From: a virus
Length of the DNA: 18,390 nt
UHGV virus genome: UHGV-1669119
Strand: one strand, 5' to 3'
This document shows positions 403 through 18,390 of the stretch, piece after piece; the stretch's first letter is position 1, and each line of letters starts with the position of its first letter. Below the pieces are notes generated by a model. It searched no databases. It had not been told where the DNA came from and saw only the letters and a program-made list of their open reading frames with translations. The position numbers and the translations under genes were made by a program.

Positions 403-404
403 AC

Positions 405-977: not shown

Positions 978-1038
978 TTTATTTTCCAGTTATCAGGTCA
1001 TTATCGAAGCCCCTCCTGGAAGAGCTTCTGTAATGCTA

Positions 1039-1563
1039 TTACCGGGACTGTTCTATTTGTCGGACACCAGCCAACTGGTTATTCGCCTTCTCGATGGCTG
1101 CCAACAGTGGGTTAATCCACAGAACAGCCTGGCAATATGTCAACGTTCTGGGGGTAGTGGCACGATCACCGGCTGAGTCAATGTCCCCGGAATCGGCGTG
1201 CAATGCGCTGGCGCGTAAACGGTTCGCGTAGTTGAGCAACCCGACAGCAATATCAACAGGAACAGGGAAATCACAGTTCTTTTCACGGAGCAGAACCTCA
1301 CGGTATTTGATGACTGTCTTCTCGTGACCGATGTCGACCAGAGAATTTAATCGGCTTGCGTTTTCTGCTATCTGGTTAAAACGATTGAAGTTTAATGCCT
1401 GATTAGCTATCACTTTCCCTTGATATTCAGCTTCACCTTCCGCTTTATCAGCCCGCAACTTTTCTGCCTGATACTTGCTGTGGTAATGGTTTGCAGACCA
1501 GACGAGCGCCCCAAAGGCAGAGAAGAAAAATGCCGCGATGACAATCTTATAAGTCAGCTTCAT
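1039..1563 (-). CDS. Rz: Rz-like i-spanin (inner-membrane spanin subunit)
   Basis: 174 aa with N-terminal transmembrane segment (IVIAAFFFSAFGALVW), immediately after the endolysin with a 17-nt overlap, and containing an embedded lipoprotein ORF in the +1 frame. Sequence is not lambda Rz-like; call rests on position and architecture. Confidence 0.65.
   Translation of the reverse strand: MKLTYKIVIAAFFFSAFGALVWSANHYHSKYQAEKLRADKAEGEAEYQGKVIANQALNFNRFNQIAENASRLNSLVDIGHEKTVIKYREVLLREKNCDFPVPVDIAVGLLNYANRLRASALHADSGDIDSAGDRATTPRTLTYCQAVLWINPLLAAIEKANNQLAGVRQIEQSR
1140..1286 (-). CDS. Rz1: Rz1-like o-spanin (outer-membrane lipoprotein), embedded in Rz in the +1 frame
   Basis: Not in the ORF track (48 codons, GTG start at 1284-1286; alternative GTG at 1299-1301). 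Hand translation: VKRTVISLFLLILLSGCSTTRTVYAPAHCTPIPGTLTQPVIVPLPPER-stop. Lipobox L-S-G-C followed by a proline-rich mature part; stop TGA at 1140-1142. Confidence 0.55.
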   Translation of the reverse strand: MKRTVISLFLLILLSGCSTTRTVYAPAHCTPIPGTLTQPVIVPLPPER

Positions 1564-2023
1564 TTACCACCCCACCAGCATCTTTAAACCTGGAAATCAG
1601 GTCACCGATTTTATGTTCATACTGACCGTAACCTGCACCAGGTAACGACGCCCAGATATTGCTGCAACGGTCGATTGCCTGACGAATATCGCCACGGTCA
1701 ATCATCGGTAAAGCGCCACGCTCTTTAATCTGCTGCAGCGCCACAGCGTCCTGACTTTCTGGCGAAAAATCTTTCAGGCCAAGCTGCTTACGGTAGGCAT
1801 CCCACCAGCGTGAAAGAAGCTGATACCGGCCTGCGGCTGTTGATTTAAGCTTCGGGTTTAGCGTGACAAGTTTGCGAGGGTGATCGGAGTAATCAGTGAA
1901 CAACTCACCTCCGACAATAACGTCATAACCGTGATTACGTGTCGGTTGTCGCCCGTTATCCGTTCCTTCTGACCATGCCACCATATCCAGGAAAGCTTTA
2001 CGTTGGGAATTTAGTGTCTGCAT
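1547..2023 (-). CDS. R: Endolysin, lambda R-type lytic transglycosylase
   Basis: 158 aa; ...QRKAFLDMVAWSEGTDNGRQPTRNHGYDVIVGGELFTDYSDHPRK...DRCSNIWASLPGAGYGQ... is near-identical over long stretches to phage lambda R as I recall it. AAGGAG Shine-Dalgarno 7 nt upstream of ATG 2021-2023. Confidence 0.9.
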   Translation of the reverse strand: MQTLNSQRKAFLDMVAWSEGTDNGRQPTRNHGYDVIVGGELFTDYSDHPRKLVTLNPKLKSTAAGRYQLLSRWWDAYRKQLGLKDFSPESQDAVALQQIKERGALPMIDRGDIRQAIDRCSNIWASLPGAGYGQYEHKIGDLISRFKDAGGVVNEADL

Positions 2024-2026
2024 GAA

Positions 2027-2368
2027 TTACTCCTTAGAGCCACCAAACTTGTTACCGATTACTCGCATTGCAGCCCCACGAATAGCATCGACACCGATCA
2101 GCCCAACACCACCACCAATGGCAACAGAAAGCGATTTAGGCCATCCAACATACTCAAGAGCGGATGCAAAGGTCAGCGTCAGAGCACCACAGAGCAAAAT
2201 CTCAAGCGTTTTTCGTTTCCAGCCGCCGCCACCGCCAAAATAGGCAATGCGCAAACCAGCCATAACAATTGACATAACCACTGCGCCCAACGGCGTATCT
2301 CCACGCCACCAACTTTGTAAGAGTTCCAGTAAGTCAGGCCAGGAATGAGGAGCATTGTGCATTTTCAT
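2027..2368 (-). CDS. Class I holin with dual-start Met-Lys-Met motif
   Basis: Track ORF 2027..2386; likely true start is the MKM motif (ATG 2366-2368 and 2360-2362) preceded by GGAGGTGGG. Three predicted transmembrane segments and a charged C-terminal tail; immediately upstream of the endolysin. Confidence 0.8.
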   Translation of the reverse strand: MKMHNAPHSWPDLLELLQSWWRGDTPLGAVVMSIVMAGLRIAYFGGGGGWKRKTLEILLCGALTLTFASALEYVGWPKSLSVAIGGGVGLIGVDAIRGAAMRVIGNKFGGSKE

Positions 2369-2470
2369 ACTTCCCACCTCCGCCATTACGGGGTGTTGTT
2401 GAAAGGCGGGCCCTGCGTATACGCCCGTAGGATTGGGTTATGAGCCGTCCTTCGGTGGGCCCTGAATACA

Positions 2471-2493
2471 AAAAAAGTTCGCCATAGCGAACC
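2471..2493 (-). terminator. Rho-independent terminator (minus strand) in the late-operon leader, about 100 nt upstream of the holin
   Basis: Minus-strand RNA GUUCGC-UAUG-GCGAAC followed by UUUUUUU (plus-strand A7 at 2471-2477; stem 2478-2493). Position is compatible with a tR'-like terminator that Q would read through. Confidence 0.5.
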
Positions 2494-2719
2494 TTGTTAA
2501 ATTTGTTAAAAAAGGAGGTTATTTAACATAATGTATGTTATAGGAACCACACGATCCCCGCTCGCAATAGATTTGCGATGAAAGGCCTATTTAATCAACT
2601 TAAGTGGTCCAGAATGACGAAATTCGAGTGAATAAAAGGTGCATAAAAAAGGGCAAAAACTGCATAGCGTTTTTTCGCAGCGAAAGCCCTGTTTTATTAA
2701 CTTTTCCCCAGAATGGGGC

Positions 2720-2746
2720 AATAAAAAAGGCCCCCTTGCGGAAGCC
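2720..2746 (-). terminator. Candidate rho-independent terminator (minus strand) downstream of the Q / 113-aa ORF pair
   Basis: Minus-strand RNA GGCUUCC-GCAA-GGGGGCC (GNRA-type loop, two G-U wobble pairs) followed by UUUUUUAUU. Lies about 65 nt after the stop of ORF 2814..3155. Confidence 0.4.
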
Positions 2747-2813
2747 TCTTCGTGATGAACTGTTTTCAACGGATATCAGGCTAATCGGCTTTTTGGAATT
2801 CCACAACTATTTT

Positions 2814-3155
2814 TTATCTTACCTTGATGCCTGATGCCGTCAGATGTTTACGACAGTCCTGAATACCTTCGTTATAACCCGCATCGTAGAAGCTATCCGG
2901 CTTTGCCTTCAGCGCAGGAAGCGTAACGCTGGTAGCTCTTCGTTCGGCCAGAACACCTGCCTGAAAGAGTGTCCACATCAACTGAACTGCTGAATCACAG
3001 TAAGTAACATCTTCACTGTACAATTCTCGTTCAATCCTGATGCCAAGTTGAGCCTTCATTGATGCGCTAATATTACCTTTGACCTGCAACGACAGGTCTG
3101 GGTACCTCTGTTCCATGAAGCTTTCAAATCTGTTGCGAACGCTGATCAGAGCCAT
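2814..3155 (-). CDS. Hypothetical protein (113 aa) between Q and the late leader
   Basis: ATG 3153-3155 with AAGGGA 6 nt upstream; 31 nt after the Q stop and in a different frame. An in-frame stop 3 codons upstream of the ATG shows it is not a frameshifted Q extension. No recognisable motifs. Confidence 0.55.
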   Translation of the reverse strand: MALISVRNRFESFMEQRYPDLSLQVKGNISASMKAQLGIRIERELYSEDVTYCDSAVQLMWTLFQAGVLAERRATSVTLPALKAKPDSFYDAGYNEGIQDCRKHLTASGIKVR

Positions 3156-3186
3156 CTGGTTCCCTTACGTGATTGATTGCTGGATA

Positions 3187-3609
3187 TTATGCCGCCGAGC
3201 AGCTCCTACGCAAAGTCCTGATAGCCTGAGGCTTTGACTGAACCGACTGATCCATTTCGAGCACCACATCCAGCATGGCTAAGCAACCGTCAATAAATCC
3301 CTCTGCCGCCTGAAGCCTCTTCAGAACGTGGGTGTGAGATACGCCGAGCTTCTCACCCATCGCCCGCACGGGCATGGCCTGGACGTAATGCCACTCAAGG
3401 AGCGTGCACAGATACGGATCTTTTTTCTTCAGGCAGCTCATAGCGGAGTTGATGATAAGACCGTCATTGTCACTGCATTTCAGCCTTCCAGACTGCGTCG
3501 CGGGTAGCAGATTCTTAAACCCGGCTGCAACAGGAGGAAAGTAGACACTACCACCTTCACTCGCTGCCCAGCCACCCCAGCGCTCTAAAACCTGTTGAAT
3601 ATTACGCAT
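3187..3609 (-). CDS. Q: Late-gene antitermination protein Q (DLP12 QuuD / phage 21-82 type)
   Basis: 140 aa; MRNIQQVLERWGGWAA...CSDNDGL...LKRLQAAEGFIDGCLAMLDVVLEMD closely parallels the QuuD-type Q sequence as I recall it (MRDIQMVLERWGAWAA...). Located upstream of the lysis cassette in the same orientation. Confidence 0.75.
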   Translation of the reverse strand: MRNIQQVLERWGGWAASEGGSVYFPPVAAGFKNLLPATQSGRLKCSDNDGLIINSAMSCLKKKDPYLCTLLEWHYVQAMPVRAMGEKLGVSHTHVLKRLQAAEGFIDGCLAMLDVVLEMDQSVQSKPQAIRTLRRSCSAA

Positions 3610-3662
3610 AGCTCTGACCTCTACGTTTTGCTACGAAAAAATTTTCTGAGAACCACGTTTGT

Positions 3663-3682
3663 TTATCCGTGGGTGTGGATAA
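3663..3682. promoter_or_regulatory. DnaA-box pair: inverted TTATCCGTG / TGTGGATAA (reverse strand matches the TTATCCACA consensus exactly)
   Basis: Plus 3674-3682 tgtggataa is the reverse complement of the DnaA box consensus TTATCCACA; an imperfect inverted copy sits at 3663-3671. Located 60 nt from the iteron cluster. Confidence 0.4.
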
Positions 3683-3796
3683 CGCAGTTCCGATTCGCTT
3701 ATTACACGCTGTTATGTGCAAAAAATTCCTTGTTCGGCCTGTACCAACCTGTACCCACCTGTACCAGCTCTTTTCAAACCTTTTCCCCAAGCGACT

Positions 3797-3809
3797 TATA
3801 TATATATAT
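3797..3809. repeat. (TA)n dinucleotide tract, candidate DNA unwinding element
   Basis: tatatatatatat at 3797-3809, centred between the direct and inverted iteron blocks. Confidence 0.85.
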
Positions 3810-3870
3810 GGGGTTCTTAGTAATTAGGTTGGTACAGATGGTACAGTTGGTACTGGCCTTTAAATTCAAT

Positions 3871-3909
3871 TAGTTAAAATGTACCAACCTCTATTTTGAG
3901 GTTGGTACA
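3871..3909 (-). terminator. Hairpin plus U-tract at the primase 3' end (minus strand); formed by an iteron inverted pair
   Basis: 12-bp perfect inverted repeat TGTACCAACCTC / GAGGTTGGTACA (3880-3909) with a 6-nt spacer overlapping the primase stop codon; followed on the minus strand by UUUUAACUAAUU. May act as both terminator and iteron pair. Confidence 0.35.
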
Positions 3910-6083
3910 GGTTGGGACACCGCCTCAAAAATTCGAGTCATTTTCCCCCCAATTCGCCTTTGGGCACGCTTATACCCGCAATTTTGCAAAACATTACTAA
4001 TTCGCATTTCTTCGCGTTTTCCGATGCGGTCAGGATTTAGCCCAATCGCATCACGCAAAACATCACTTGCGCGTAAAAATTCGCAATTTCGCGGAAGTTC
4101 ATTAGTCATCAGGTCTGGCGTGTCGAGCCATTTCTCTACCGTTTCAAGCCAAGCATCCTTGATGGTGTACTGTTCATGGACACTCGCTGCCAGTTGTTCA
4201 GCCTCACGGAACTGGATACCCCCCAGACGCTGAAACACCTCACGAGCCTCAGCCCAAAGTAAAAGGAGATCTCTTTTTATCGCTTTCACGTCGACTTTCG
4301 ACACTTCCACGGGGAGCCAGCGACGGTTACCAGTCTTGTCCGCAAGGAATTCGTCCTCATTGGTGGTACCAACGAACACCAGGCGACGAGGAAACTGGGT
4401 GGCGAACTCCCGGTATTTCGGGATCCAGTTTTCGTGAGTACGCGTCACAAACGCTTTGATTGACTCCAGCTCTTTGGTATTAAGTCCGCGCAGTTCACCA
4501 ATCTCTGCCACCAGCCGACCACGCATTTTTCGAGCGAGATCATCGTCTTTTTCGGCAAAAGAGATTTCAGTAAAAAACGCAGGATCAGGGCTCAGTGCCT
4601 CCACTCCGGAAGACTTACCGCAGCCCTGCGGACCAACGAGGATCGGCACCATATCCGCTTTGATGCCTGGCTCCAGTACTCGCCCCGCCAACGCGGTCCA
4701 CATGTACATAGACACCGCACGGGTATAAGGCGTGTCGGCGGTACCGAAGTGCGTATGGTAGAAACATTCGATGCGCGGCACGCCATCCCACTCCAGTCCG
4801 TTCAGCCAAGTGATCGCTGAATCGAATGGTTGTTCATCGGCTGCAAGTAACACCACATCGCGAATAAGTTCACGACCAACAGGTTTAAATCCCCGCTTTT
4901 CCATCGTGATGCGCAGGCGCGCATAATCCGCATCGGTGAATGCCCGCCATTGTCCGGATCCTGCAGGGGCAAACATGATTTCGTCGCGGAACTGGTCAAA
5001 GCGAATATCGATGTCCACAAAATCAGGGCGTACTACTGCTTTGGCTGCGTTGCTGATTGTTGCCTCGATACGCCCCCATTTATCACGCTCGAAAGCAGGC
5101 AGCGGTAAAGGTTCCGCCACTTCGGTGCTGGTCAGATCTTCGAAATCGTCGTTGCGGATCCCGATGGCATTAAGGAAATCTCCGTCATCACGATGCGCAC
5201 AACTGGCATGCAGGCATTTAAAATGCCCCTGCTCAAAGCCCGCGGTTCCCGCAGGAAAATAAACTGTGCTTGTTGGATCGCCCCCGCTACTGTGGCCGTC
5301 TTCAAACGGACAGCGGATATATCGTTCACCATTTGCGCCATCCAGCAGCGTCCAGCCATTGGCATCAAGATATTCAGCTGTATCATCCGTCGCGCCGGGC
5401 GTGAATGCTGATCGGTCGCGCATCTTCGTGTTGCCCGCTTCGGTGGTTACCGACACAGGGAGTTGTTCAGCCAGGCGCTGCCACAGCGTTTCAAGCTGCT
5501 CACCAGTAATAGCCGGAGGTTCATCCGGCAAACCGCCGTCCCATTCAATACGCGCGCCGCTGCTGTGCGTACCGCAGGCAACGAACTGCTGCCCGTTCGC
5601 CAGCAACTCGATAATGCCCATATCCCCCGCCAGGCGATGGATACGCTTACGGAAATCACCATCAACGGCCAGCAGATACAGACACTTATTACTGTTTGCT
5701 CGCCAGCGTCGCGGCGGCAACTCACCCAGAAGTTGCACAAGCGTTTTGCGAATATCTGCCTGAATGTCTTCATCTTCGCTATCACAGTCCAGCGCCAGCC
5801 AGCCATGGCCTGTACGCACGCAGATGCCATAATCCGGTTCATTCGACCAGCGGGCAAAATCATGCTCAGTAACAACATGCCCGGTCCATTGAGCAATACC
5901 GGTGACCTGGCGGTCCCGGTTATAGCGACTCGGCGTCTTACCCAACGCTTTCAGTTTACTATCAGGGGATATGGTCGCACTGGGGTTACATACAACTGGG
6001 AGAAGATGATCAGTTCTCCCCAATACCAGGTCGAAATGAAACCACTCATCAGGCGTAGCTCCCCATGGTTTGCTATCGGACAT
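3891..6083 (-). CDS. Replication primase/helicase-like protein: N-terminal bifunctional primase-polymerase domain plus C-terminal VirE/P-loop NTPase domain (P4 alpha-like)
   Basis: 730 aa. N-terminal prim-pol style motifs (GICVRTGHGWLALDCDSED), central Cys/His cluster (CPFEDGH...HFKCLHASCAH), Walker A VGPQGCGKSS. Start ATG 6081-6083 is 3 nt after the cro stop. Confidence 0.8.
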   Translation of the reverse strand: MSDSKPWGATPDEWFHFDLVLGRTDHLLPVVCNPSATISPDSKLKALGKTPSRYNRDRQVTGIAQWTGHVVTEHDFARWSNEPDYGICVRTGHGWLALDCDSEDEDIQADIRKTLVQLLGELPPRRWRANSNKCLYLLAVDGDFRKRIHRLAGDMGIIELLANGQQFVACGTHSSGARIEWDGGLPDEPPAITGEQLETLWQRLAEQLPVSVTTEAGNTKMRDRSAFTPGATDDTAEYLDANGWTLLDGANGERYIRCPFEDGHSSGGDPTSTVYFPAGTAGFEQGHFKCLHASCAHRDDGDFLNAIGIRNDDFEDLTSTEVAEPLPLPAFERDKWGRIEATISNAAKAVVRPDFVDIDIRFDQFRDEIMFAPAGSGQWRAFTDADYARLRITMEKRGFKPVGRELIRDVVLLAADEQPFDSAITWLNGLEWDGVPRIECFYHTHFGTADTPYTRAVSMYMWTALAGRVLEPGIKADMVPILVGPQGCGKSSGVEALSPDPAFFTEISFAEKDDDLARKMRGRLVAEIGELRGLNTKELESIKAFVTRTHENWIPKYREFATQFPRRLVFVGTTNEDEFLADKTGNRRWLPVEVSKVDVKAIKRDLLLLWAEAREVFQRLGGIQFREAEQLAASVHEQYTIKDAWLETVEKWLDTPDLMTNELPRNCEFLRASDVLRDAIGLNPDRIGKREEMRISNVLQNCGYKRAQRRIGGKMTRIFEAVSQPVPTSK

Positions 6084-6086
6084 GGG

Positions 6087-6299
6087 TTAAGCCTTTTTAT
6101 CGTTTTGTGAGCCATACAACAGCCAATTAGGGTCGCAATCCAATGCTATAGACATTTCAAGAAGATAACGTGGCCGAGCAATAACACCACTTTCAATTCT
6201 GTTTATTGCCTGCTGGCTCACTCCTGTGAGCTCAGCCAACGTAACTTGCGTCATTTTGAGTTCTTTACGTCGTTCTTTTACTCGGGTCGCTAAGGTCAT
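6087..6299 (-). CDS. cro: Cro-like HTH repressor (XRE family)
   Basis: Track ORF 6087..6317 begins at a TTG; likely ATG start at 6297-6299 with GAGGTGA upstream, giving a 70-aa protein MTLATRVKERRKELKMTQVTLAELTGVSQQAINRIESG... Divergent from the cI-like gene and similar to the N-terminal HTH of that repressor. Confidence 0.75.
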   Translation of the reverse strand: MTLATRVKERRKELKMTQVTLAELTGVSQQAINRIESGVIARPRYLLEMSIALDCDPNWLLYGSQNDKKA

Positions 6300-6317
6300 T
6301 GCTTTCACCTCATACAA

Positions 6318-6419
6318 TTTTAGTGGTATTTAGCAACAACAAACGAGGTTTGTCAAATACAACAAAAATTGTTTTTAATGTGGGGATACACATTAATACA
6401 ACCCAGAAGGACTAATCCC
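6318..6419. promoter_or_regulatory. Immunity-region operator/promoter interval (OR-like) between divergent cro and cI
   Basis: Palindromes with ACAA...TTGT half-sites: ACAAACGAGGTTTGT (6338-6352) and ACAACAAAAATTGT (6358-6373). GAAGGA Shine-Dalgarno for cI at 6405-6410. Confidence 0.5.
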
Positions 6420-7043
6420 ATGTCTCTCGCAGCCCGTTTTAAAGCACGTCGTTTGGAATTAGGAATGACTCAAGTGGAAGTAGCGAATTCTGCAGGGGTT
6501 AGCCAACAATCCATAGAATCCATCGAAAGTGGACGAACCAGAAAGCCACGCAATCTTCTGGATCTGGCTAAGGCCTTGAAATGTAGCCCAGACTGGCTAC
6601 TGAACGGTAAAAATATTATGCCTCTCGCGGAGATAAGTACCAGACGCATACCTATATTAAGTTACGTTCAGGCAGGAGAGCTTACAGAAGCAAGAGACAT
6701 AACAGATCTGACAGGGGAATTTGAATATATTTTGGCAGACTCTGACATTCCAGAAACATGCTTCGCATTACGTATCGATGGCGACAGCATGCAACCAGAG
6801 TTTAAAGAAGGAGACATTGTTATCATCGATCCTGATCTATGTCCTGCACCAGGGGAGTTTGTTGTCGCCAAAAACGACGGTCACGAAGCTACATTTAAAA
6901 AATACCGTCCATTAGGAATCGGCATCGACGACTTTGAATTAATCCCCCTAAATCCTGATTACCCTATTTTTCGTAGTGCAGATATGAACTTACAGATCAT
7001 AGGTGTAATGATCGAACACCGTATTTACCGCCGTAAACGTTAG
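6420..7043 (+). CDS. cI: CI-like repressor: N-terminal HTH_XRE plus C-terminal S24 (LexA-like) self-cleaving peptidase domain
   Basis: Track ORF starts at TTG 6369; likely true start is ATG 6420 (MSLAARFKARRLELGMTQVEVANSAGVSQQSIESIESG...). Ala-Gly cleavage motif (VQAGE), catalytic GDSM serine and downstream FKK lysine. Confidence 0.85.
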   Translation: MSLAARFKARRLELGMTQVEVANSAGVSQQSIESIESGRTRKPRNLLDLAKALKCSPDWLLNGKNIMPLAEISTRRIPILSYVQAGELTEARDITDLTGEFEYILADSDIPETCFALRIDGDSMQPEFKEGDIVIIDPDLCPAPGEFVVAKNDGHEATFKKYRPLGIGIDDFELIPLNPDYPIFRSADMNLQIIGVMIEHRIYRRKR

Positions 7044-7062
7044 TATTCCCACCGTAAATATC

Positions 7063-7082
7063 GGGAGGCGTAACAGCCTCCC
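7063..7082. terminator. GC-rich stem-loop just after cI (possible weak or bidirectional terminator)
   Basis: GGGAGGC-gtaaca-GCCTCCC, 7-bp perfect stem; flanking T-tracts are poor on both strands. Confidence 0.3.
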
Positions 7083-7147
7083 TTACCCCATTTGTAAAGT
7101 CTTACAAATTAAATTCACTTAAATATCAATAAAGTAGTATTCACACC

Positions 7148-7198
7148 CCACAAAATACCACATTTGTGGTTTACATAATACAACTCAAATTGTATCTT
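7148..7198. promoter_or_regulatory. OL-like operator region downstream of cI
   Basis: CCACAAAATACCACATTTGTGG (7148-7169) and ATACAACTCAAATTGTAT (7178-7195) share the ACAA/TTGT half-site and the ATACAAC...AATTGT core with the OR palindromes. Confidence 0.4.
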
Positions 7199-7365
7199 TA
7201 GCCACAAGTCGAACGGCGCGACTCTAAACCATGCGTCGGGACCGTGGCGGGACAGGATGTCGGCAATACGGGTCAGTAAGTTCCCTTTGGGGTGCGGCGA
7301 AGCACTGTCTACTGATACAAGTCGAAGCCGCCGAACCACCAAAGTGAACTGAATGAGGAAACGGC

Positions 7366-7560
7366 GTGAAAACGTATAAACCGCTCAAAGGTGAATGCCC
7401 TGCTTGCCAAACACAGCTTCTGACACCAAAGCCAAAACGATACCAAATCAACGAATGTTATGAGCACTGCCCTGGATGTGGTGCTTTCCTGCATACCATT
7501 GCAACGCACTGGCGTGTCCGCTTCAACCTTGTGGTACCACGTACGCACAATACCAACTGA
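7366..7560 (+). CDS. Small zinc-ribbon protein (64 aa), first gene of the early-left operon
   Basis: GTG start with GAGGAA 7 nt upstream; two CxxC pairs (CPAC ... CPGC); basic C-terminus. Followed immediately by a strong terminator. Confidence 0.5.
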   Translation: MKTYKPLKGECPACQTQLLTPKPKRYQINECYEHCPGCGAFLHTIATHWRVRFNLVVPRTHNTN

Positions 7561-7591
7561 ATCATCCATGTAATTGCTGTGTGTAGTCTTT

Positions 7592-7617
7592 GCCCGCCTC
7601 ACGTGACGGGCTTTTTT
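7592..7617 (+). terminator. Rho-independent terminator (plus strand) after the zinc-ribbon gene
   Basis: GCCCG-cctcacgtga-CGGGC followed by TTTTTTAT (7612-7619). Confidence 0.6.
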
Positions 7618-7676
7618 ATGTCTGAAAGCGCACTCGCAACAGCGTGCTCCCCGATATGAAAAAAGGAATACAACCG

Positions 7677-7826
7677 ATGAAACCTGAACACATCCATCGA
7701 CTGACGGGGCGCGATGTTCTCCGTTATCGCCGTAAAAACTTCGATTTGATGACCGGTCTGGCCGTTGCCACTGCGCTCGGTCTGATCATCACTTTCATTC
7801 TCCTTGTAGCGAGGACCACAGTATGA
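7677..7826 (+). CDS. Small membrane protein (49 aa, single C-terminal transmembrane helix)
   Basis: Track ORF 7644..7826 starts at a GTG; ATG 7677 has AAGGAA 8 nt upstream. Hydrophobic stretch LMTGLAVATALGLIITFILLV. Stop overlaps the start of the next gene (ATGA). Confidence 0.45.
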   Translation: MKPEHIHRLTGRDVLRYRRKNFDLMTGLAVATALGLIITFILLVARTTV

Positions 7827-8725
7827 GTTTAGAAACCAGTCTAGAACTTAATAATCAACTTCTGGCACAACATAATGCGCTGCTTGAACGTCTTATCCGC
7901 ACAATGGCATCAGGCATTGTTATGCATCCTGACACGATTTCACGAGTGCAGGAATGTCGGGATACAGCAACTGAAACTGAAAATATGTCAGCGGCAATGA
8001 CACTGGATGATCTGGAGTTCAGCGACGTTATCGCACTGGCTGGTTTCTACCCGGTAGCCACCCCTATCACAGAAGACATGCTGCAACGTGCTGTTGCCTA
8101 CCGTGATGCTGAAGGCGATAAACGAGTTGTTCAGATTGATGCTCTCGACAGCGCATTGCAGGGCGTCAAACGAGCCAGGGCGCTGCTTAAACCTGCTCTC
8201 CTGGACCTGTCCCGTAACATCCTTAAGTTCTGGGACGACCTGCCAACCATCGGCGAGCGACGTGCTTTTGCCGAGCAGCTACTTGATGCACCTGCAGATG
8301 GGCGTGATGAAGTTAAGCCGAAAAAGGCCAGTAACAAAGATGGAGAACGCACGGGGCCGTTTTACGTCAAAAATGTATCCGGCACAGCAGCCAGTGAACT
8401 CCATACCTTACGCAAGTTGAACGAGATGCTTAAAAAAGGCCATATCGAGATCAACCGTGTTGAGTACCTTCAGCTGCAGGAAGAATTTGCACGCAGAGAC
8501 GCAGCAAATTCCAGCCAGAATAATGACGCCAAAGATGACCATACAATTGATTTCGCGGCACTACGCAAACAAGCTGAAGGGTTGATCCTCCAGTTAGCAA
8601 AAGGGGGTTACCGGGCAGAAGCTATTGCAATTCTGGAAAAACAGGGAGCCAGGAAACTTGGTGAAGTAACGGATGAAAATCTCGCTGAAGTAATCACCCT
8701 GGCTGAAAAAGCACTGGAGGGTTAA
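7823..8725 (+). CDS. Hypothetical protein (300 aa), acidic and predicted largely helical
   Basis: Long ORF translationally coupled to the upstream small membrane protein and ending 2 nt before the DUF2800 gene. No catalytic motif recognised. Confidence 0.55.
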
Positions 8726-8727
8726 TC

Positions 8728-10029
8728 ATGCCAGACGTTCATGCACAACTTTCTCCATCATCAGCGCATCGATGGATGCGCTGCCCAGGAAGTCTGGCGC
8801 TGGAGGCCACACAACCGGATAAAGAAACAACTTTTGCAATCGAGGGCACTGCAGCGCATGCACTTGCCGAAAAGGTGCTGCGCAACCGCCAGAGCCACCC
8901 GGAGCACTATGCAGGTTGCAACGTCGCGATGTTCCTTGGATCCTATCCTCTTGCTGAGCACCCGGATGATACTTCCGGCCCGCAGGTAGATGAGGAAATG
9001 GTCGAAGCCGTTGGTCGTTACGTCGACACTGTTTGGGCGCTGGCGCAGGGCAATGAGCTGCTGGTCGAGCAGCGTGTCGACTTCTCCCATATAACGGGTG
9101 TGGAAGAATCTTTCGGAACTGCCGACAGCATAATCATTGCTGGTAGCGAATTACAAATCCACGACCTGAAATATGGCAAAGGCGTCCGCATTGATGCAGA
9201 ACAAAATGAGCAACTACAACTGTATGCTCTGGGTGCGCTCGAACAATTCAGCATGCTGTATGACTTTGAGACTGTAAGATTATTTATTCACCAGCCGCGG
9301 CTTAACCACGTTTCAGAGTGGGCTCTGACGGTGGAAGAGCTCCAGGCGTTCGGTGAACGGGCACAGGAGGCCGCAACCAGTGCGATCCTTGTTCTCAATA
9401 TTGCTGAATGCGAAGGCATTGAGACACTACCGCTGGAAAACTTCATACCTGGAGAAAAACAGTGCCGCTTCTGTAAAGCAAAAGCTATTTGCACTGCCCA
9501 GAAAATGCAGCATTTACAAACAGCGGCCAGCGACTTTGAAGATCTGACAAAGCCTGTCAGCGAAATAATCACCAATGCCAGCGCACGTGTACCTCTGTTA
9601 ACCATTGAGCAGCTTGCGGAGATCTATAGCCAGACCGACTTTATTGAGTCCTGGCTAAAGGCAGTACGGGACCGGGTTCACAATGAACTCAATGCCGGAC
9701 ATCCGGTACCGGGGTTTAAACTGGTAACAGGAAAACAAGGTAACCGGGCCTGGAGTGATGAAGAGGCAGCTCGCGCACTTCTGAAGGACCAGTTCAGGTA
9801 CAAAACTGAAGAAGTATTCGACTTTAAACTTATTAGTCCCACAAAAGCCGAAAAACTTATCAAAAAGGCCAGTCCGCGCCGTTGGTCAAAAGTCGAGGCA
9901 CTGATAACACGAGCTGATGGTAAACCCACCGTCGTTCCCGAGTCAGACCCACGCCCCGCACTCAATATCAACCCTGTAAATGATTTCGACGACGTATCCG
10001 ACGATACGCTAACCGCAGACCTCATCTGA
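8728..10029 (+). CDS. DUF2800-family PD-(D/E)XK nuclease (Cas4/RecB-like exonuclease fold)
   Basis: N-terminal [15 protein letters not shown] signature, D...K core (IHDLKYGKG) and C-terminal cysteine cluster ([10 protein letters not shown]). GGAGGG Shine-Dalgarno. Confidence 0.7.
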
Positions 10030-10044
10030 TTTAAGGAAATCCCC

Positions 10045-10593
10045 ATGAAACTGAAGCTGAACAATGTTCGTCTGGCCTTCCCGTCTCTGTTTGAAGCTAA
10101 AACTGTAAACGGCGAAGGCGATCCGCGTTTCTCCGCAGTATTTTTAATGTCTCCCAAACACCCACAACTGGAAGAAATCCGTAAAGCTATGAAGCAGGTA
10201 GCGAAGGAAAAATGGGGGGAGAAGTGGGAGTCCATTTATAACCAGCTGGAGAAAAAACTCAATCTGTGCCTGCATGATGGTGATGAAAAAGCAGAGTATG
10301 AAGGCTTTCCCGGCAATTTCTTCCTGAACGCTGCTAACAAAGCGCGCCCAGCTGTTCTTGATCGCGATCGTTCGCCACTAATTCAGGCTGATGGACGTCC
10401 CTATGCAGGGTGCTATGTAAACGCCGTTATCGATATCTGGGCACAGGACAATAATTTCGGTAAACGCATTAATGCCTCACTCGGCGGAGTCCAGTTCCTG
10501 CGAGACGGCGATGCATTCGCTGGCGGCGGAGTGGCAAGCGCTGACGATTTCGACGATATCAGCGAAGGTGCTGATGCTGAAGCACTAATTTAA
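10045..10593 (+). CDS. DUF2815-family protein (ssDNA-binding-like partner of DUF2800 and phage DNA polymerase)
   Basis: MKLKLNNVRLAFPSLFEAK... N-terminus characteristic of DUF2815; acidic C-terminal tail (DDFDDISEGADAEALI); conserved position between DUF2800 and polA. Confidence 0.65.
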   Translation: MKLKLNNVRLAFPSLFEAKTVNGEGDPRFSAVFLMSPKHPQLEEIRKAMKQVAKEKWGEKWESIYNQLEKKLNLCLHDGDEKAEYEGFPGNFFLNAANKARPAVLDRDRSPLIQADGRPYAGCYVNAVIDIWAQDNNFGKRINASLGGVQFLRDGDAFAGGGVASADDFDDISEGADAEALI

Positions 10594-10644
10594 AAATATT
10601 CATCCCCCAGCTGCGTGCTGGGGGATCTCATGAGGGAAAGAATA

Positions 10645-11283
10645 ATGTCACAGCCCGTATTAACTAATTACCTTAAAACTCAAATCATCAATAACGCACT
10701 TGAGAAAGCGGGTATCCCCAAACGTAAATCAGCACTACGAGCTGCTCGTGTTGAATGGGCCGAACGTGTTCGGCTTGCAGCTATCGGGGGCGTAGAGAAA
10801 GAAGCTGAAATATTAAAAAATATAAAAAAAATAGAAACACTGGTATCAAAATTCCCCGAAGCATTAAAAACCGCCAATAACATTATCAGGGAAGAGTGTT
10901 ACATGTGTCTGAATCTGGCAGGTTCTCGGGTTACCGTCTATTTCAACGGTAACTACCGAGGATATGAATCAGGGTCACCAGACCATATTCACAAAATCGC
11001 GCCGGGGGAATTTACCCTTCTGGCAAATGACCCTCTAGTTACAGAGTTTTACGGGTTTGATACACTTTATGAGCAGATACAGAGCGATGAGTCAGACATT
11101 CGACAGAATGTCAGCGCTGCACTCAGTAAAGTGCGCACAGTTAAGCGCCTGCTGGAAGAGTGGCCTGAAGCTAAAGAACTTCTGCCAGCCGATGCACCAT
11201 CTGCTCCGCTTCCGCCAGCTATACGACGCGAAACTCTCAACGAAATGATCGGCCTCCCTTCTGACGAAGGGGTAGATGCTTAA
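10645..11283 (+). CDS. Hypothetical protein (212 aa) in a low-GC island
   Basis: Track ORF 10615..11283; ATG 10645 has AGGGAA 6 nt upstream. AT-rich codon usage relative to the flanking replication genes. No recognisable motif. Confidence 0.5.
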   Translation: MSQPVLTNYLKTQIINNALEKAGIPKRKSALRAARVEWAERVRLAAIGGVEKEAEILKNIKKIETLVSKFPEALKTANNIIREECYMCLNLAGSRVTVYFNGNYRGYESGSPDHIHKIAPGEFTLLANDPLVTEFYGFDTLYEQIQSDESDIRQNVSAALSKVRTVKRLLEEWPEAKELLPADAPSAPLPPAIRRETLNEMIGLPSDEGVDA

Positions 11284-11350
11284 TATTTCTTATAACAAAG
11301 GCTGGCTTAAGAAAATAGTTATCCAAACCAGCCTACCGCAATACTAAAAA

Positions 11351-11620
11351 TTAAAATTCATTGAATTTAAAAAGACATTTCCCTATTGGATTGCCATAGT
11401 CTCTACATACCGAAATGCTGTCCCATACAGGCTGAGCCAAACACCCAAGAAAGAACCCAATAAGCGCAAAAATTATAATTTTGGGAAGAACACGATCCTT
11501 AGGACCTTCTTCACGTTCGAGCCATGCGCCACCAGCCCGAACTATTCTCCCTAAAATATAAAGAATGGGGAAAGCAATAATACCTATCAATGAAAGTATT
11601 CCGATACCAAAGCTAAACAC
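11351..11620 (-). CDS. Small membrane protein (89 aa, two predicted transmembrane helices), antisense to the surrounding operon
   Basis: GTG start 11618-11620 preceded by AAGGAG at 6-nt spacing; hydrophobic segments FGIGILSLIGIIAFPILYILG and IIIFALIGFFLGCLA; low GC; convergent with the 212-aa ORF and divergent from polA. Confidence 0.55.
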   Translation of the reverse strand: MFSFGIGILSLIGIIAFPILYILGRIVRAGGAWLEREEGPKDRVLPKIIIFALIGFFLGCLAQPVWDSISVCRDYGNPIGKCLFKFNEF

Positions 11621-11676
11621 CGCCGTCTCCTTGTTTATTTACACCTACATAACCATATATCACACAAGGTTATTTT

Positions 11677-13740
11677 ATGTCCAATATACTATGGGGTGAC
11701 CTAGAAACCTATTGCGAAATCCCTATTACGAACGGTACCCATGCGTATGCCGAAGGCGTTGAAGTGATGCTGTTCGCATGGGCTATCAACGACGAGCCCG
11801 TAAACGTGTGGGATATCACTGCCGGTGGTGGTATTCCACACGGCTTATACGAAGCAATCGCAGCCCCTGAAACCCTGCTTTATTTTCATAACTCTCACTT
11901 CGACCGCACCGTCCTGCGTTATGCAATGCCGCGCCTGGCACCGCCAGTCGAACGTTGGCGCGACACAATGGTGCAGGCGCTGGCGCACGGTCTCCCGGGG
12001 TCTCTGGGGGAACTCTGCGAAGTACTAGGCGTCCCGCAAGACAAAGCGAAGGACAAAGAAGGTAAAGCGCTGATCCAGCTGTTCTGTAAGCCACGCCCGA
12101 AAAACAGCAAACTGCGCCGGGCCACCAGCAAAACCCACCCGGAAGAATGGCGGCGCTTTGTTGCTTACGCCGGACTGGATATCGAGGCAATGCGCGAAGT
12201 CTATAAACGTCTGCCGAAGTGGAATTATCAGGGGACAGAACTGGCGCTCTGGCATCGTGATCAGCAGATCAACGACCGGGGCGTCTGCATGGACATTCAA
12301 CTCGCGCGCGCTGCGATCGAAGCGGTAGACCAGGAGCAAAAGCGCCTGGCAAAGCGTACACAGGAAATGACTGATGGCGAAGTGCAGGCAGCAACACAAC
12401 GGGACGCGTTGATTAAGCACATCGTTGAATCCTACGGTGTGGAGCTACCAGACATGCAACGCAGTACTCTGGAACGTCGTATAGCCGACCCCGATTTACC
12501 ATCTGCCGTGAAAGAACTGCTGGCTATCCGCCTGCAGGCCAGTACTACCAGCACCAGTAAATACAAGGCACTGATGAAAGGCGTAAGCCACGACGGGCGC
12601 TTACGCGGTACGCTACAGTTCTGCGGGGCGTCACGTACCGGTCGTTGGGCCGGACGGCTATTCCAGCCCCAGAACCTTCCCCGCCCTTCACTAAAACAGG
12701 AACAAATAGACGAAGGCATCGAAGCACTGAAAGCCGGATGTGCAGACCTGCTGTTTGACAATATCATGGAACTAACCAGTTCAGCGTTACGTGGCTGCAT
12801 TATCGCGCCAACAGGCAAAAAACTGGTGGTAAGTGACTTGTCGAACATTGAAGGCCGTATGCTGGCATGGCTGGCGGGAGAAGAATGGAAACTGAATGCA
12901 TTCAGAGAGTACGACGCCGGAACGGGTCCGGACTTATATAAACTGGCGTATGCAAAAGCTTTCGATATTGCACCAGATGATGTTGATAAACACATGCGTC
13001 AGATCGGTAAAGTCATGGAACTCGGTCTGGGTTATGGAGGTGGTGTATCGGCTTTCATCACTTTTGCTCTGGTTTACGGTCTCGATCTCGACGAGCTGGC
13101 GAACGCCGCACTGCCAAACATTCCCCGCGATGTTATCCGCGAGGCGAAAAGCTGGTACAACGAATCGGTTAAACGTAAGTCGACCTTTGGCCTGTCCGAG
13201 CGTGTATTCATCGCATGTGACTCGCTCAAGCGCCTGTGGCGCAGGGCGCACCCGGCGACCTGCGATTTCTGGTACGAACTGGAGCGCACCGTCCGCACTG
13301 CAATCGCCACACCGCAAAAAACATTGTATTGCGGTTATCTTAAAATCCGCCGCGATGGCGCGTGGCTGCGCATACAGCTACCATCCGGACGCGCTGTATG
13401 CTACCCCTCTCCGGTTATCGAAAAAGGGAATATCACCTATATGGGTGTTAACTCTTATTCGCGTAAATGGCAACGACTCAAAACCTACGGCGGAAAGCTG
13501 GTAGAGAACGTCACCCAGGCGGCCGCCCGCGACGTTCTGGCCGGAAACATGCCGCTTATCGAAGATGCCGGTTACAGCATTGTGCTGACGGTACACGACG
13601 AGGTGATCACCGAAGCACCTGACACAGAAGATTTCAACGATAAAGCGCTTTCCGCGCTTCTCTCCACTAACCCCGAATGGGCGCCCGATATCCCACTGAA
13701 CGCTGGCGGTTTTGAGGCGTACCACTACCGTAAGGATTAA
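11677..13740 (+). CDS. DNA polymerase, family A (phage-type, with N-terminal 3'-5' exonuclease-like region)
   Basis: 687 aa; Pol A palm motifs including ...[11 protein letters not shown]... (motif A-like D...E), ...[16 protein letters not shown]... (motif B-like K...YG) and ...[11 protein letters not shown]... (motif C HDE). Confidence 0.85.
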
Positions 13741-13745
13741 TCGCT

Positions 13746-13949
13746 ATGACTGTAATCAAAACGCATACCGGAACGGTTATTACCCGCACCGGTGAAAAGC
13801 AGGTGCAATTGCATCAAAACGCGACAACGTGGGTGGCTGGCCCAAAAGAGTATTACTACAAAGACACTGGCCGCCGCGGTGGTGCTGTCGGTGTCCGCAC
13901 TCGTCTGGTGCTGAGCAGCATCCGCCCAATCGAAGCAAAGCAGGAGTAA
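13746..13949 (+). CDS. Hypothetical small protein (67 aa)
   Basis: ATG 6 nt after the polA stop, AAGGA upstream; no motifs recognised. Confidence 0.4.
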   Translation: MTVIKTHTGTVITRTGEKQVQLHQNATTWVAGPKEYYYKDTGRRGGAVGVRTRLVLSSIRPIEAKQE

Positions 13950-13954
13950 CCCCT

Positions 13955-14176
13955 ATGTCATTTAAATATCGGGACAGTCCGCTTTATTACCGGGCTGCGA
14001 GGGAGGCCTTGCGCCTTGAGCAGTCCGGCGAATATGACCGGGCAGCGAAGGTCTGGGCCAAGGCTAACCGCCAGTCACGTAACGAACTGAATCAGGACTG
14101 GAGCGAACGCCGGTCTGATTTTTGTCTGATGCAGAACATGCGCGAAAAGCGTAAGGCGGTGAGCGATGACTTGTGA
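13955..14176 (+). CDS. ANR-family-like small regulator (73 aa)
   Basis: Track ORF 13829..14176; ATG 13955 with GGAG 8 nt upstream. MSFKYRDSPLYYRAAREALRLEQSGEYDRAAKVWAKANRQSRNELNQDWSERRSDFC fits the ANR pattern as I recall it (Y..AA..A..E..G.Y..A..W..A ... W ... C). Confidence 0.5.
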   Translation: MSFKYRDSPLYYRAAREALRLEQSGEYDRAAKVWAKANRQSRNELNQDWSERRSDFCLMQNMREKRKAVSDDL

Positions 14177-14648
14177 GCAGACCATTCTTGACATGTGCTG
14201 CGGCTCTCGTATGTTTTGGTTCGACAAGGAGGACAAGCGCGCCGTGTTCAGTGATATCCGCGCCGAGCAGCATGAGCTTTGCGACGGTCGCCAGTTGGTT
14301 ATAAGTCCGGACCTTATAGCTGATTTCCGCGCCCTTCCCTTTGCCGATAACACTTTCCCTGTCGTCGTTTTCGATCCGCCGCACCTCGAGCGCGTCGGCG
14401 ATAACGCATGGATGAGGAAAAAGTACGGGCGGCTCAACAAAGAAACATGGCGCGATGATCTTCGCGACGGCTTCGCCGAAGCATTCAGGGTATTGCGGCC
14501 CCACGGTGTACTCATATTCAAATGGAACGAAACGCAGATCCCGGTAAGCAATATCTTGGCGCTGACCGACGAGAAGCCGGCCATATGGCAACGAACCGGA
14601 AAAGCCGACAAAACCCACTGGGTTATTTTCGTCAAAGGTGTGGAATGA
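14166..14648 (+). CDS. Small SAM-dependent DNA methyltransferase (N6-adenine / N4-cytosine class, DPPH motif)
   Basis: Motif I-like LDMCCGS and motif IV VVVFDPPH; 160 aa; start overlaps the ANR-like stop (ATGACTTGTGA) and stop overlaps the VRR-NUC start. Confidence 0.6.
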   Translation: MTCEQTILDMCCGSRMFWFDKEDKRAVFSDIRAEQHELCDGRQLVISPDLIADFRALPFADNTFPVVVFDPPHLERVGDNAWMRKKYGRLNKETWRDDLRDGFAEAFRVLRPHGVLIFKWNETQIPVSNILALTDEKPAIWQRTGKADKTHWVIFVKGVE

Positions 14649-14941
14649 TGGCCTACGAACGTGAAAGCCTTATCGAAAAGCACCTCGTCGCCGAAGTGAA
14701 AAAGGCTGGCGGGGTCGCCTTTAAGTTCGTGTCACCCGGTCGCCGCTCGGTACCGGATCGCATTGTCCTGCTACCCGGCGGTCGCATCGTCTTTGTCGAA
14801 TGCAAAGCGCCAAGCAAACCACCACGGCCTGACCAGTTACGCGAGCACGAACGGCTGCGCGCGTTGGGCTTTACCGTGGTGGTATTAGATAGCAAAAATC
14901 TGGAGGGGATATTGTGCGGGGAGCCTATTACAACGAAATAG
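14645..14941 (+). CDS. VRR-NUC domain nuclease
   Basis: Track ORF 14522..14941; probable start ATG 14645 (MMAYERESLIEKHLVAEVKKAGG...). PD-(D/E)XK core PDRIVLL...IVFVECKAP typical of VRR-NUC. Confidence 0.65.
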   Translation: MMAYERESLIEKHLVAEVKKAGGVAFKFVSPGRRSVPDRIVLLPGGRIVFVECKAPSKPPRPDQLREHERLRALGFTVVVLDSKNLEGILCGEPITTK

Positions 14942-15942
14942 ACCCTAACGCAGCACAATGGCTGCGTAACCTTATTGCTGCAGGTCATATCGCCCCGGGT
15001 GAAGTTGATGAAAGGAGTATCGAAGATGTCGCACCAGACGACTTGCGCGGATTCACACAGTGCCATTTCTTCGCCGGGATCGGCGTCTGGTCTTATGCTC
15101 TGCGTCTGGCCGGATGGCCGGATAACAAACCGGTCTGGACAGGAAGTTGCCCGTGCCAGCCTTTCAGCTCGGCTGGTAAAGGCGCTGGGTTTGATGACGA
15201 GCGGCACCTATGGCCAGCACTATTCCACCTCATCAGCGAGCGACGCCCTAAGCTGGTATTTGGCGAACAGGTTGCGGGAGTCAATGCCTGGTTCGATCTT
15301 GTACAAACTGACGTGGAAGCAGTGGACTACGCCTTTGGGCTTGTCCCGTTTCCGGCTGCGGGCGTCGGTGCCCCGCATATCCGAGATAGAGCGTATTGGG
15401 TGGCCGACGCCAGCGGCGAGCGATCACAGCGGTGGCGAAAGCGCCTCAATAGCATTGAGGAAGATGTCTGGAGATCGTCGACCGTCCGGCAACACGCTAC
15501 ACAGCTCCCTGCGGAATTTTGCTCACCTAGCGGGGTGGTACACCCCAACCTGCAACACAAACCCACAGCCGGAGACAAAACGCGGTCTAGAAACCTTAGC
15601 GGGACTATCCAGATTAGCGGGATGGCCGACAGTGACGACGATCGACAACAACCAAGTTCGTGCCGAGGGCGCAGCGGCCAATCATACCGAACGGGGAACG
15701 ACCCTCGGCGGCGCTGCGAGAATCTGCGGCCCAATACGATTAACGGCTGCTGGGATGGTGCTGACTGGCTCCTCTGCCGGGATGGTCGCTGGCGGCCAGT
15801 TGAATCCGGCACATGCCCGTTGGCTAATGGGATTACCTCCAGAGTGGGACGACTGCGCGCCTACGGCAACGCGATAGTCGCACCAGCTGCCGCAACATTC
15901 ATCCGCTCGTTTATGGAATGCGCAGGATACGACCTTATTTAA
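14914..15942 (+). pseudogene. DNA cytosine-5 methyltransferase whose central segment (about 15396-15860) lies in a different reading frame from its N- and C-terminal motifs
   Basis: Frame 1 (GTG 14914, GGAGG upstream) carries motif I FFAGIG, motif IV PCQPFS, motif VI-like GEQV and motif [11 protein letters not shown], then after about 15860 motif X YGNAIVAP. Motif IX ([16 protein letters not shown]) and the repeated GWPTP-type motifs are in frame 2 (track ORF 14975..15877). Both frames are stop-free, so a 342-aa polypeptide is still encoded. Confidence 0.55.
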
Positions 15943-16259
15943 TGCCACTCACATCTGGCATGATACCGTCCAGAAGGTAATTGCTTATATACAACGGAGC
16001 CGCCCATGGCATAAGTATAAGCATGAAGTTTTGTCCAGAAGTCCCCATAAACTAGTATTGGGGCTAAAAATTTTGGATCGCTAACCATAGATGTAGCAGG
16101 AAGCTCGAAACCTTTAGAAAGAATGTTTACCAGTGAAGGGTAATTTTCAAAATCAGTGCTATTCCCGCCCACCTCTAAAGCATCCAGTTCAAAGTCGAGC
16201 ACTCCACCATTTTTGTAATACTCCGGAACAGTTAACCCTGATGTTAACAAAGTAGCCAT
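15939..16259 (-). CDS. Hypothetical protein (106 aa) in a low-GC island, antisense to the flanking genes
   Basis: ATG 16257-16259 with AGGAGG 8 nt upstream; island 15943-16290 is visibly AT-rich (roughly 40% GC by eye) against GC-richer neighbours; stop overlaps the C5-MTase stop. Confidence 0.5.
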   Translation of the reverse strand: MATLLTSGLTVPEYYKNGGVLDFELDALEVGGNSTDFENYPSLVNILSKGFELPATSMVSDPKFLAPILVYGDFWTKLHAYTYAMGGSVVYKQLPSGRYHARCEWH

Positions 16260-16293
16260 TAAACAATCCTCCTGAATTTTAAAGGGTTACATT

Positions 16294-17688
16294 ATGCCCA
16301 AAGTTTTCACGCCTCGCCCCTACCAAGATCTAATTATCAACCACGAAATCGACATTCACCGCTGCAACATCTGGGCAGGGATGGGGATGGGTAAAACCGT
16401 AGCGACACTCACCACGCTGGAAGATCTTTTCATGGCGGGCTCAGAGACACAGCCCGCGCTGGTCCTCGCGCCCCTACGCGTTGCAGCAAGCACATGGCCG
16501 GATGAAGCGCTGAAATGGGGGCATCTGCGCAATATCGAGGTGCAGCCGATTGTTGGTAACGCCAAAGCACGCTCTGCAGCGCTGGCGAACAGCAACGCGA
16601 GCGTGTTCACCATCAACTACGATAACCTTGTCTGGCTGGTTGAGGAATTGGGAGAACGATGGCCGTTCGGTACTGTCATTCCAGATGAAAGCACCCGGCT
16701 AAAATCCTTCCGGCTGCGAGGTGGTGGTAAGCGCGCGGCGGCGCTGGGCAAAGTGGCGCATAAGTATGTCCAGCGCTGGATAAATCTCACCGGTACGCCA
16801 GCACCGAACGGCCTGGTAGATTTGTGGGGACAATTGTGGTTTGTGGACCAGGGGCAACGTCTCGGGCGCACTTACGGCGCGTTTACCTCACGCTGGTTCA
16901 ACTCGATACAGTTTCCGGGGCAGAGCTGGACCAAACTGGAGCCGTTTGCTCACTCACATGCTGAAATACAGCGAGCGTTAGCCGATGTGACCCTCTCGCT
17001 GGATGCGGCCGACTGGTTCGATATCAAAGACCCCATCCATAACGTAATCCGCGTGGATATGCCGCCGAAGGCCCGTCAGCAGTATCGTGAAATGGAAAAG
17101 GAAATGTTCCTCGAGCTGAACGGCGAAGGCATCGAAGCACCAAACGCCGCGGCAAAGACACTGAAGTGTCTGCAAATCGCCAGTGGCGCAGTATACACAG
17201 ACGACACCGGAAGTTGGTCAGAACTGCATGACACCAAACTACAAGCGCTGGACAGCATACTGACCGAAGCAGCTGGCGCACCTGTGCTGGTTGCTTATCA
17301 CTGGAAACACGATCTTGAACGCTTGCTTAAAGCATTCCCTCGCGGTCGTCACCTCGACCAAGATCCACAGACACTGCGCGACTGGAATTCCGGAAAGATT
17401 CCTGTTCTCTTTGCACACCCAGCCAGCGCGGGCCACGGTCTGAACATGCAGGACGGCGGAAACATACTGGTATTTTTCTCACACTGGTGGGACCTGGAGC
17501 AGTATCAGCAAATTATTGAACGTATCGGCCCCACCAGGCAGATACAGGCCGGACACAATCGTCCGGTATTTATTCACCACATTATTGCGGCCGACACTAT
17601 GGACGAAATGGTGATGGAGCGGCGCAACTCAAAACGAACAGTGCAGGACATCCTGCTCGATGCCATGAAAAAGAGAGGTATAGCATGA
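16294..17688 (+). CDS. SNF2-related DEAD/DEAH-box helicase (phage replication/recombination helicase)
   Basis: 464 aa; Walker A GMGKT, motif II VIPDESTRLK, helicase C-terminal motifs; commonly co-encoded with DUF2800, DUF2815, PolA and VRR-NUC. Confidence 0.8.
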   Translation: MPKVFTPRPYQDLIINHEIDIHRCNIWAGMGMGKTVATLTTLEDLFMAGSETQPALVLAPLRVAASTWPDEALKWGHLRNIEVQPIVGNAKARSAALANSNASVFTINYDNLVWLVEELGERWPFGTVIPDESTRLKSFRLRGGGKRAAALGKVAHKYVQRWINLTGTPAPNGLVDLWGQLWFVDQGQRLGRTYGAFTSRWFNSIQFPGQSWTKLEPFAHSHAEIQRALADVTLSLDAADWFDIKDPIHNVIRVDMPPKARQQYREMEKEMFLELNGEGIEAPNAAAKTLKCLQIASGAVYTDDTGSWSELHDTKLQALDSILTEAAGAPVLVAYHWKHDLERLLKAFPRGRHLDQDPQTLRDWNSGKIPVLFAHPASAGHGLNMQDGGNILVFFSHWWDLEQYQQIIERIGPTRQIQAGHNRPVFIHHIIAADTMDEMVMERRNSKRTVQDILLDAMKKRGIA

Positions 17689-17885
17689 GCGAGAAACCCG
17701 ACGATTTACTCACCCCAGATGAAGTATGCCAAAAGTTAGGTATTACACAGAAAACGCTATGTGAGTGGAATATTAAGCATCGTCATCGGGCTATCCTGGC
17801 ACCAATTCGTTTCAGTGCAAAAGTAGTTCGTTATGAGCGCCGAAATGTCGACGCTTTTATTCAAAAGTGTCGCAGCCAGTATTAA
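17685..17885 (+). CDS. AlpA/excisionase-like helix-turn-helix protein (66 aa)
   Basis: LLTPDEVCQKLGITQKTLCEWNIKHRH...APIRFSAKVVRYERRNVDAFI fits the small excisionase/AlpA HTH pattern; ATGA overlap with the helicase stop. Confidence 0.5.
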   Translation: MSEKPDDLLTPDEVCQKLGITQKTLCEWNIKHRHRAILAPIRFSAKVVRYERRNVDAFIQKCRSQY

Positions 17886-18348
17886 CCTCGCCGCCGTAGC
17901 AATGCAACCTGCGCAAGTATGCTCCGCTCGTGAGCCTCGAAAGCTTCGCGCTTTAACGCAATCTCTTCCTGTAAAATCTCATCAGAAAAGTCGTAATGTT
18001 CTGCCATCGGGTCATCTGACTTGCTGGAGTGGTGAAGGCAAAGGAGGCTGATTTCCCTTCGGTCTGATCGGGAATAGCCTCTTTCCTTCATCAAGGCAAT
18101 AACATTGCTCTTAAGGAATTTACGGCACATCGTATTAAATGCACCGTCTTTCCCTTTAACAGTCCCATCATGTTTTATTCCTTTTACAGCCCCGTCCGGG
18201 CTGTATGTTTTCACCAGCTTATCCAGTGATCGTTTTGAAAATGGCTGCATTGGATCACGTGGCTGCAAAAATACATAATCCCTGTTGCACTCAGGAACTG
18301 AATCACGCCAGGCTTTCTGCTCGTCGATAATCCGCCGGATCTCAGGCG
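17882..18348 (-). CDS. 5'-truncated ORF (C-terminal 155 codons), possible tyrosine recombinase C-terminal region
   Basis: Minus-strand frame is open from the adapter junction to the stop at 17882-17884 (the track start at 18268 is an internal TTG). Segment ...LLCLHHSSKSDDPMAEHY resembles the LLGHxS...Y region of phage integrases, but the upstream HxxR box is not clear. Confidence 0.35.
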
Positions 18349-18390
18349 CTGTCTCTTATACACATCTCCGAGCCCACGAGACGTAGAGGA
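18349..18390. other. Illumina Nextera transposase adapter read-through (CTGTCTCTTATACACATCTCCGAGCCCACGAGAC) plus 8-nt i7 index GTAGAGGA; not biological sequence
   Basis: Exact 34-nt match to the Nextera read-1 3' adapter at 18349-18382, followed by GTAGAGGA, which matches the i7 index I recall as N712. Confidence 0.9.

Follow-up and report, generated by a model that had tools for sequence, protein, structure and literature searches.

The last 42 nucleotides of the DNA analysed here, a stretch of 18,390 nucleotides from UHGV virus genome UHGV-1669119 (hereafter the window), are almost certainly Illumina Nextera (Tn5 tagmentation) library sequence left over from untrimmed or only partly trimmed reads. 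This tail is an ordinary assembly artefact and no biological feature, and it interrupts an integrase gene of an Escherichia coli prophage at the point where the genomic DNA of the window ends. A first-pass annotation had described the tail as a Nextera read-through adapter followed by an i7 index. The exact match of a 34-mer and the identity of the index, N712, confirm this description, and the coordinates given for it, 18349-18390, proved exact when the sequence was read directly. Two features go beyond that annotation: an in-frame stop codon contributed by the adapter, which masks the truncation of the integrase gene, and a 7-nt remnant of adapter at the left end of the window. The coordinates of all these features are collected in the table below.

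Table. Adapter-derived and genuine parts of the window, with the basis of each assignment
Feature	Position in window	Strand	Basis
GAGACAG, the last 7 nt of the mosaic end AGATGTGTATAAGAGACAG; residual adapter	1..7	+	String comparison
Gene at the position of the large terminase, 5' part (first 131 codons), running into the adapter stub	8..402	-	Reference CDS WP_001130788.1
Genuine E. coli prophage DNA from terminase to integrase, colinear with NZ_CP025703.1 2825717-2844057	8..18348		Ungapped comparison
Tyrosine integrase gene, 3' part (stop codon, C-terminal 154 codons and 2 nt)	17882..18348	-	Reference CDS WP_001138328.1
Synthetic Tn5 mosaic end (ME) CTGTCTCTTATACACATCT, 19 nt, read-through orientation	18349..18367	+	Exact match
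Spurious in-frame TAA from the adapter (TTA on the + strand)	18356..18358	-	Minus-strand translation ...CV*ETAPEIRRIID...
Nextera i7-side adapter segment CCGAGCCCACGAGAC, reverse complement of GTCTCGTGGGCTCGG	18368..18382	+	Exact match
i7 sample index GTAGAGGA (N712, catalogue index), 8 nt	18383..18390	+	String comparison and published primer table

By string comparison, positions 18349-18382 agree in every base with the Nextera i7-side read-through adapter of 34 nt, CTGTCTCTTATACACATCTCCGAGCCCACGAGAC, and read directly the right end runs ...GGATCTCAGGCG, then CTGTCTCTTATACACATCTCCGAGCCCACGAGAC, then GTAGAGGA. The segment directly after the mosaic end is CCGAGCCCACGAGAC, which belongs to the i7 side, and not its i5-side counterpart GACGCTGCCGACGA. 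The same 34-mer is given as a trimming target for Nextera libraries, in a list that holds both 3' variants, those of the i7 and of the i5 side (PMC6460022), and in a published primer table N712 has the sequence GTAGAGGA (PMC7589761). The tail is like the i7-side read-through adapter of Illumina Nextera and Nextera XT in its exact 34-nt constant part followed by a catalogue 8-nt index, in its outward-pointing orientation at a contig terminus and in the break of homology at the first adapter base. It is unlike the full i7-side adapter (ME, CCGAGCCCACGAGAC, N712 and P7) in that the P7 tail ATCTCGTATGCCGTCTTCTGCTTG is missing, because the contig terminates at the last base of the index, just ahead of it. 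That genomic sequence should resemble an adapter to this extent by chance is so improbable that it can be neglected: about 2e-21 exact copies of the 42-mer are expected in the window, the mosaic-end 19-mer, present there in a single copy at up to three mismatches, was matched at that threshold in none of 200 shuffles, and E. coli strain BH100N (NZ_CP025703.1) has a different sequence at the position of the adapter.

The genomic part of the window stops exactly where the adapter begins. In a base-by-base comparison with NZ_CP025703.1, positions 8-18348 align over 18,341 bp with 0 mismatches and no gaps, whereas from position 18349 on only 6 of 42 bases match, fewer than the 25% expected for unrelated sequence; past the breakpoint the reference reads TTATCGGCAGGCGG... 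Among complete E. coli chromosomes, 161 have a match to the final 1,000 nt of the window; among the matches listed, all alignments (15 of 15) end at query base 958, that is, at window position 18348, eleven of them at 100% identity. The 42-mer itself has no match among 5,426 complete E. coli genomes. We also used as a probe 400 nt of the reference centred on the breakpoint: it was continuous across the breakpoint, in single copy and at 91-100% identity, in 160 of the 160 complete genomes that carry the integrase region. The claim of the first-pass annotation that the tail is library and not genome sequence thus stands, given that homology ends at 18348 and that the 42-mer is missing from the complete genomes; where it had pointed to an independent long-read assembly with the tail joined to genomic DNA as the evidence that would overturn its reading, all 160 complete genomes continue with integrase sequence instead.

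The mosaic end invites a biological reading, namely that a real transposon end lies in the integrase gene, either of a natural Tn5/IS50 or of a laboratory mini-Tn5 (EZ-Tn5-type), the contig being broken by the repeat. The first 19 nt of the tail are indeed a Tn5-derived end sequence, a likeness shared with the terminal inverted repeats of natural Tn5/IS50, and laboratory transposons use the mosaic end. Yet this 19-mer is the engineered, synthetic mosaic end, which differs at 3 positions from the 19-bp outside end of natural Tn5 (CTGACTCTTATACACAAGT) and at 4 from its inside end (CTGTCTCTTGATCAGATCT). What comes next is the Illumina-specific CCGAGCCCACGAGAC with a catalogue index, and not IS50 or marker-cassette sequence; the 42-mer is missing from the complete E. 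coli genomes, and in other contigs the same string is continued by the P7 flow-cell sequence. A search of the window at up to three mismatches to the mosaic-end 19-mer returned no second Tn5 end. We therefore reject an insertion of natural Tn5/IS50 or of a laboratory ME transposon, a reading to which we give hardly any probability, since a synthetic mosaic end leads here straight into Illumina adapter and index.

The left end of the window carries a shorter trace of the same kind. Homology to complete E. coli genomes begins at position 8 in 15 of 15 of the matches listed, 6 of the first 7 bases mismatch NZ_CP025703.1, and these bases spell the final 7 nt of the mosaic end, a 7-mer expected at a given contig end by chance with a frequency of 6e-5. 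Taken together, the 7-mer, the onset of homology at base 8 and the mismatches indicate that the left end is adapter-tipped too, and the adapter remnants at both ends suggest that the window represents an entire contig. The gene that runs into the left stub corresponds to a reference CDS of 1,623 nt (WP_001130788.1), which adjoins the small terminase subunit and is called 'TerL protein' in other genomes. Between the two ends no internal adapter copy or chimeric join was detected in the window, which has one mosaic-end match and is otherwise perfectly colinear with the reference.

At the right end, the gene cut by the adapter codes in the reference for a 465-aa tyrosine-type recombinase/integrase (WP_001138328.1), whose CDS corresponds to positions 17882-19279 in window numbering. 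The window lacks the opening 931 nt of this CDS (about 310 N-terminal codons), and the shared 467 nt are 100% identical between window and reference. It is by this nucleotide identity to an annotated gene that the fragment can be recognized as integrase: the full-length protein matches PF00589 at residues 246-359 (30.4 bits versus a cut-off of 27.1), whereas the 154-aa fragment in the window matches no Pfam family on its own. The first-pass annotation had called the minus-strand ORF abutting the adapter artificially truncated, in agreement with the 465 aa of the reference protein, of which the window retains the last 154 codons. The truncation is disguised, as the TAA supplied by the adapter closes the integrase frame upstream, and the mechanical list of open reading frames therefore reports a closed, 'complete' ORF of 128 aa that starts with TTG (17882-18268), and not a gene truncated by the contig edge.

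Granted that the adapter is an artefact, the breaks at 18348 and at window position 8 might still mark a real structural difference or strain heterogeneity: a mosaic junction, a deletion or a mixture of strains would create a branch in the assembly graph, at which the adapter tip survived. A variant in which the 5' half of the integrase gene was replaced or deleted, for example, would leave the assembler with no consistent path. Contigs often break at variable junctions, and prophage integrase regions are mosaic; moreover, both ends of the contig lie within genes and not at repeats. We nonetheless regard this explanation as unlikely, because the sequence runs through this point unbroken, in single copy and at 91-100% identity, in all 160 complete genomes that carry the region, because the window is 100% identical to NZ_CP025703.1 up to its last genomic base, because contigs often end in adapter sequence at arbitrary positions, and because a plain coverage gap accounts for both ends equally well. 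A repeat boundary as the cause of the break was rejected on the same grounds of a single-copy site that is continuous in all 160 genomes.

We thus favor an origin of both ends in library fragments. At the right end, a fragment whose insert ended at window position 18348 would have been shorter than the read, and the read would have run off the insert into the mosaic end, the i7-side adapter and finally the N712 sample index. If adapter reads were left untrimmed or only partly trimmed, the assembler, having no better-supported genomic path in what was probably a local coverage gap, would have extended the contig along such a read and then stopped. That it stopped exactly at the boundary between index and P7 may be an accident of read length or the work of a trimmer that removed only P7. 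At the left end an equivalent event on the opposite strand would have left 7 nt of mosaic end. The real genome very likely goes on in both directions, past 18348 into the missing 931 nt of the integrase gene and past window position 8 into the rest of the large-terminase gene.

The same string recurs in unrelated sequences. At least 120 IMG/VR contigs with no relation to the window contain the exact 42-mer, including the N712 index. Among the matches listed, 120 of 122 occurrences lie no more than 70 nt from the end of the locus to which the adapter points (median 7 nt), and 115 of 119 run on into a prefix of the P7 sequence; most of these contaminated contigs carry a few P7 bases, with a median of 7 among the matches listed. 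The 25 nt upstream of the 42-mer show no conservation among the IMG/VR matches listed. Immediately before the adapter, some positions show a skewed base composition in the loci listed (e.g., T at -6, A at -2 and C at -1), which is consistent with the known weak insertion-site preference of Tn5. A further 43 phage records in GenBank/RefSeq contain the constant 34 nt. Their hosts are both Gram-positive and Gram-negative and include Streptococcus, Listeria, Bacillus, Staphylococcus, Paenibacillus, Pseudomonas, Acinetobacter, Salmonella and E. coli, and these matches usually stop at position 34-35, at the start of the sample-specific index. The junction between genome and adapter seen in the window was not found in three public contig collections (viral, genome and metagenome), as would be expected of a one-off fragment end.

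Adapter contamination in deposited assemblies is what checks of the UniVec/VecScreen type are aimed at, and the tail of the window is like other such cases in that its string is common to the termini of the IMG/VR contigs and to the 43 phage records. Several deposited records carry it internally. The RefSeq record of Escherichia phage vB_EcoM_G4507 (NC_054919.1) contains a full Nextera adapter with index CGAGGCTG, P7 and poly-A runs. In the locus extracted from it (76326-77159, reverse complement) the adapter occupies positions 401-434 and sits between two adjacent CDS that are both annotated as 'baseplate hub subunit and tail lysozyme', so that a single gene seems to have been split by the contamination. 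The effect is comparable to that in the window, where the adapter truncates and falsely closes the integrase ORF. Similar internal matches were observed in MK327937.1 (110018-110055), MK327945.1 (123962-123995), NC_054922.1 (146327-146360), MH973725.1 (6673-6706), MT584805.1 (107548-107585), MZ092003.1 (28032-28065) and LR535910.1 (240196-240230). In IMGVR_UViG_3300009136_000256 (locus L079, 2545-2586), adapter, N712 and the full P7 lie internally with other DNA after them, so that the contig seems to be chimeric; in another IMG/VR locus (L029, 10630-10671) the adapter lies 141 nt short of the end and continues into P7, with one mismatch, and poly-A. Unlike these internal cases, the contamination of the window is terminal and truncates genes without any internal chimeric join.

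The genuine DNA between the two adapter remnants comprises 18.3 kb of an E. coli prophage, which adjoins yfhL in strain BH100N. According to the reference annotation, it encodes the 5' part of the large terminase, the small terminase, a lysis set of holin and GH24 lysozyme, a Q antiterminator, a VapE-domain protein, a pair of HTH/LexA-family repressors and the integrase. The annotations of the reference record also delineate a self-contained module for replication and modification on the + strand (window 7823-17688), which comprises DUF2800 and DUF2815 proteins, an Nmad5 'putative nucleotide modification protein', a DNA polymerase, a class I SAM methyltransferase, a VRR-NUC protein, a DNA cytosine methyltransferase and an SNF2 helicase, the gene for the VapE-domain protein lying on the other strand (window 3891-6083, -). 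Three Escherichia phage records (ON470579.1, ON470582.1 and ON470588.1) match the SNF2 helicase gene only (window 16391-17688, 95.8% identity), and these matches are located at the extreme ends of the records and stop at 17688, the end of the helicase gene. Two intervals have no gene annotated in the reference: one of about 430 bp (window 2387-2813), bounded by the holin gene and by a hypothetical gene that lies downstream of the Q antiterminator, and one of about 630 bp (window 7044-7676), downstream of the LexA-family repressor gene. Scans of the whole window for tRNAs and Rfam families, these two intervals included, gave no match.

The relevance of the finding is one of data hygiene only. 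Positions 1-7 and 18349-18390 are to be trimmed and the genes at both edges to be marked as partial, as a gene caller may otherwise report a complete-looking 128-aa ORF in place of a truncated 465-aa integrase, and the integrase fragment left in the window no longer reaches any Pfam threshold. The advice of the first-pass annotation to draw no biological inference from the contig end is borne out by the nature of the tail as a library artefact: this end offers no basis for inferring phage termini, the state of integration, or the loss or pseudogenization of the integrase. An equivalent artefact is visible in deposited phage genomes, where it splits genes.
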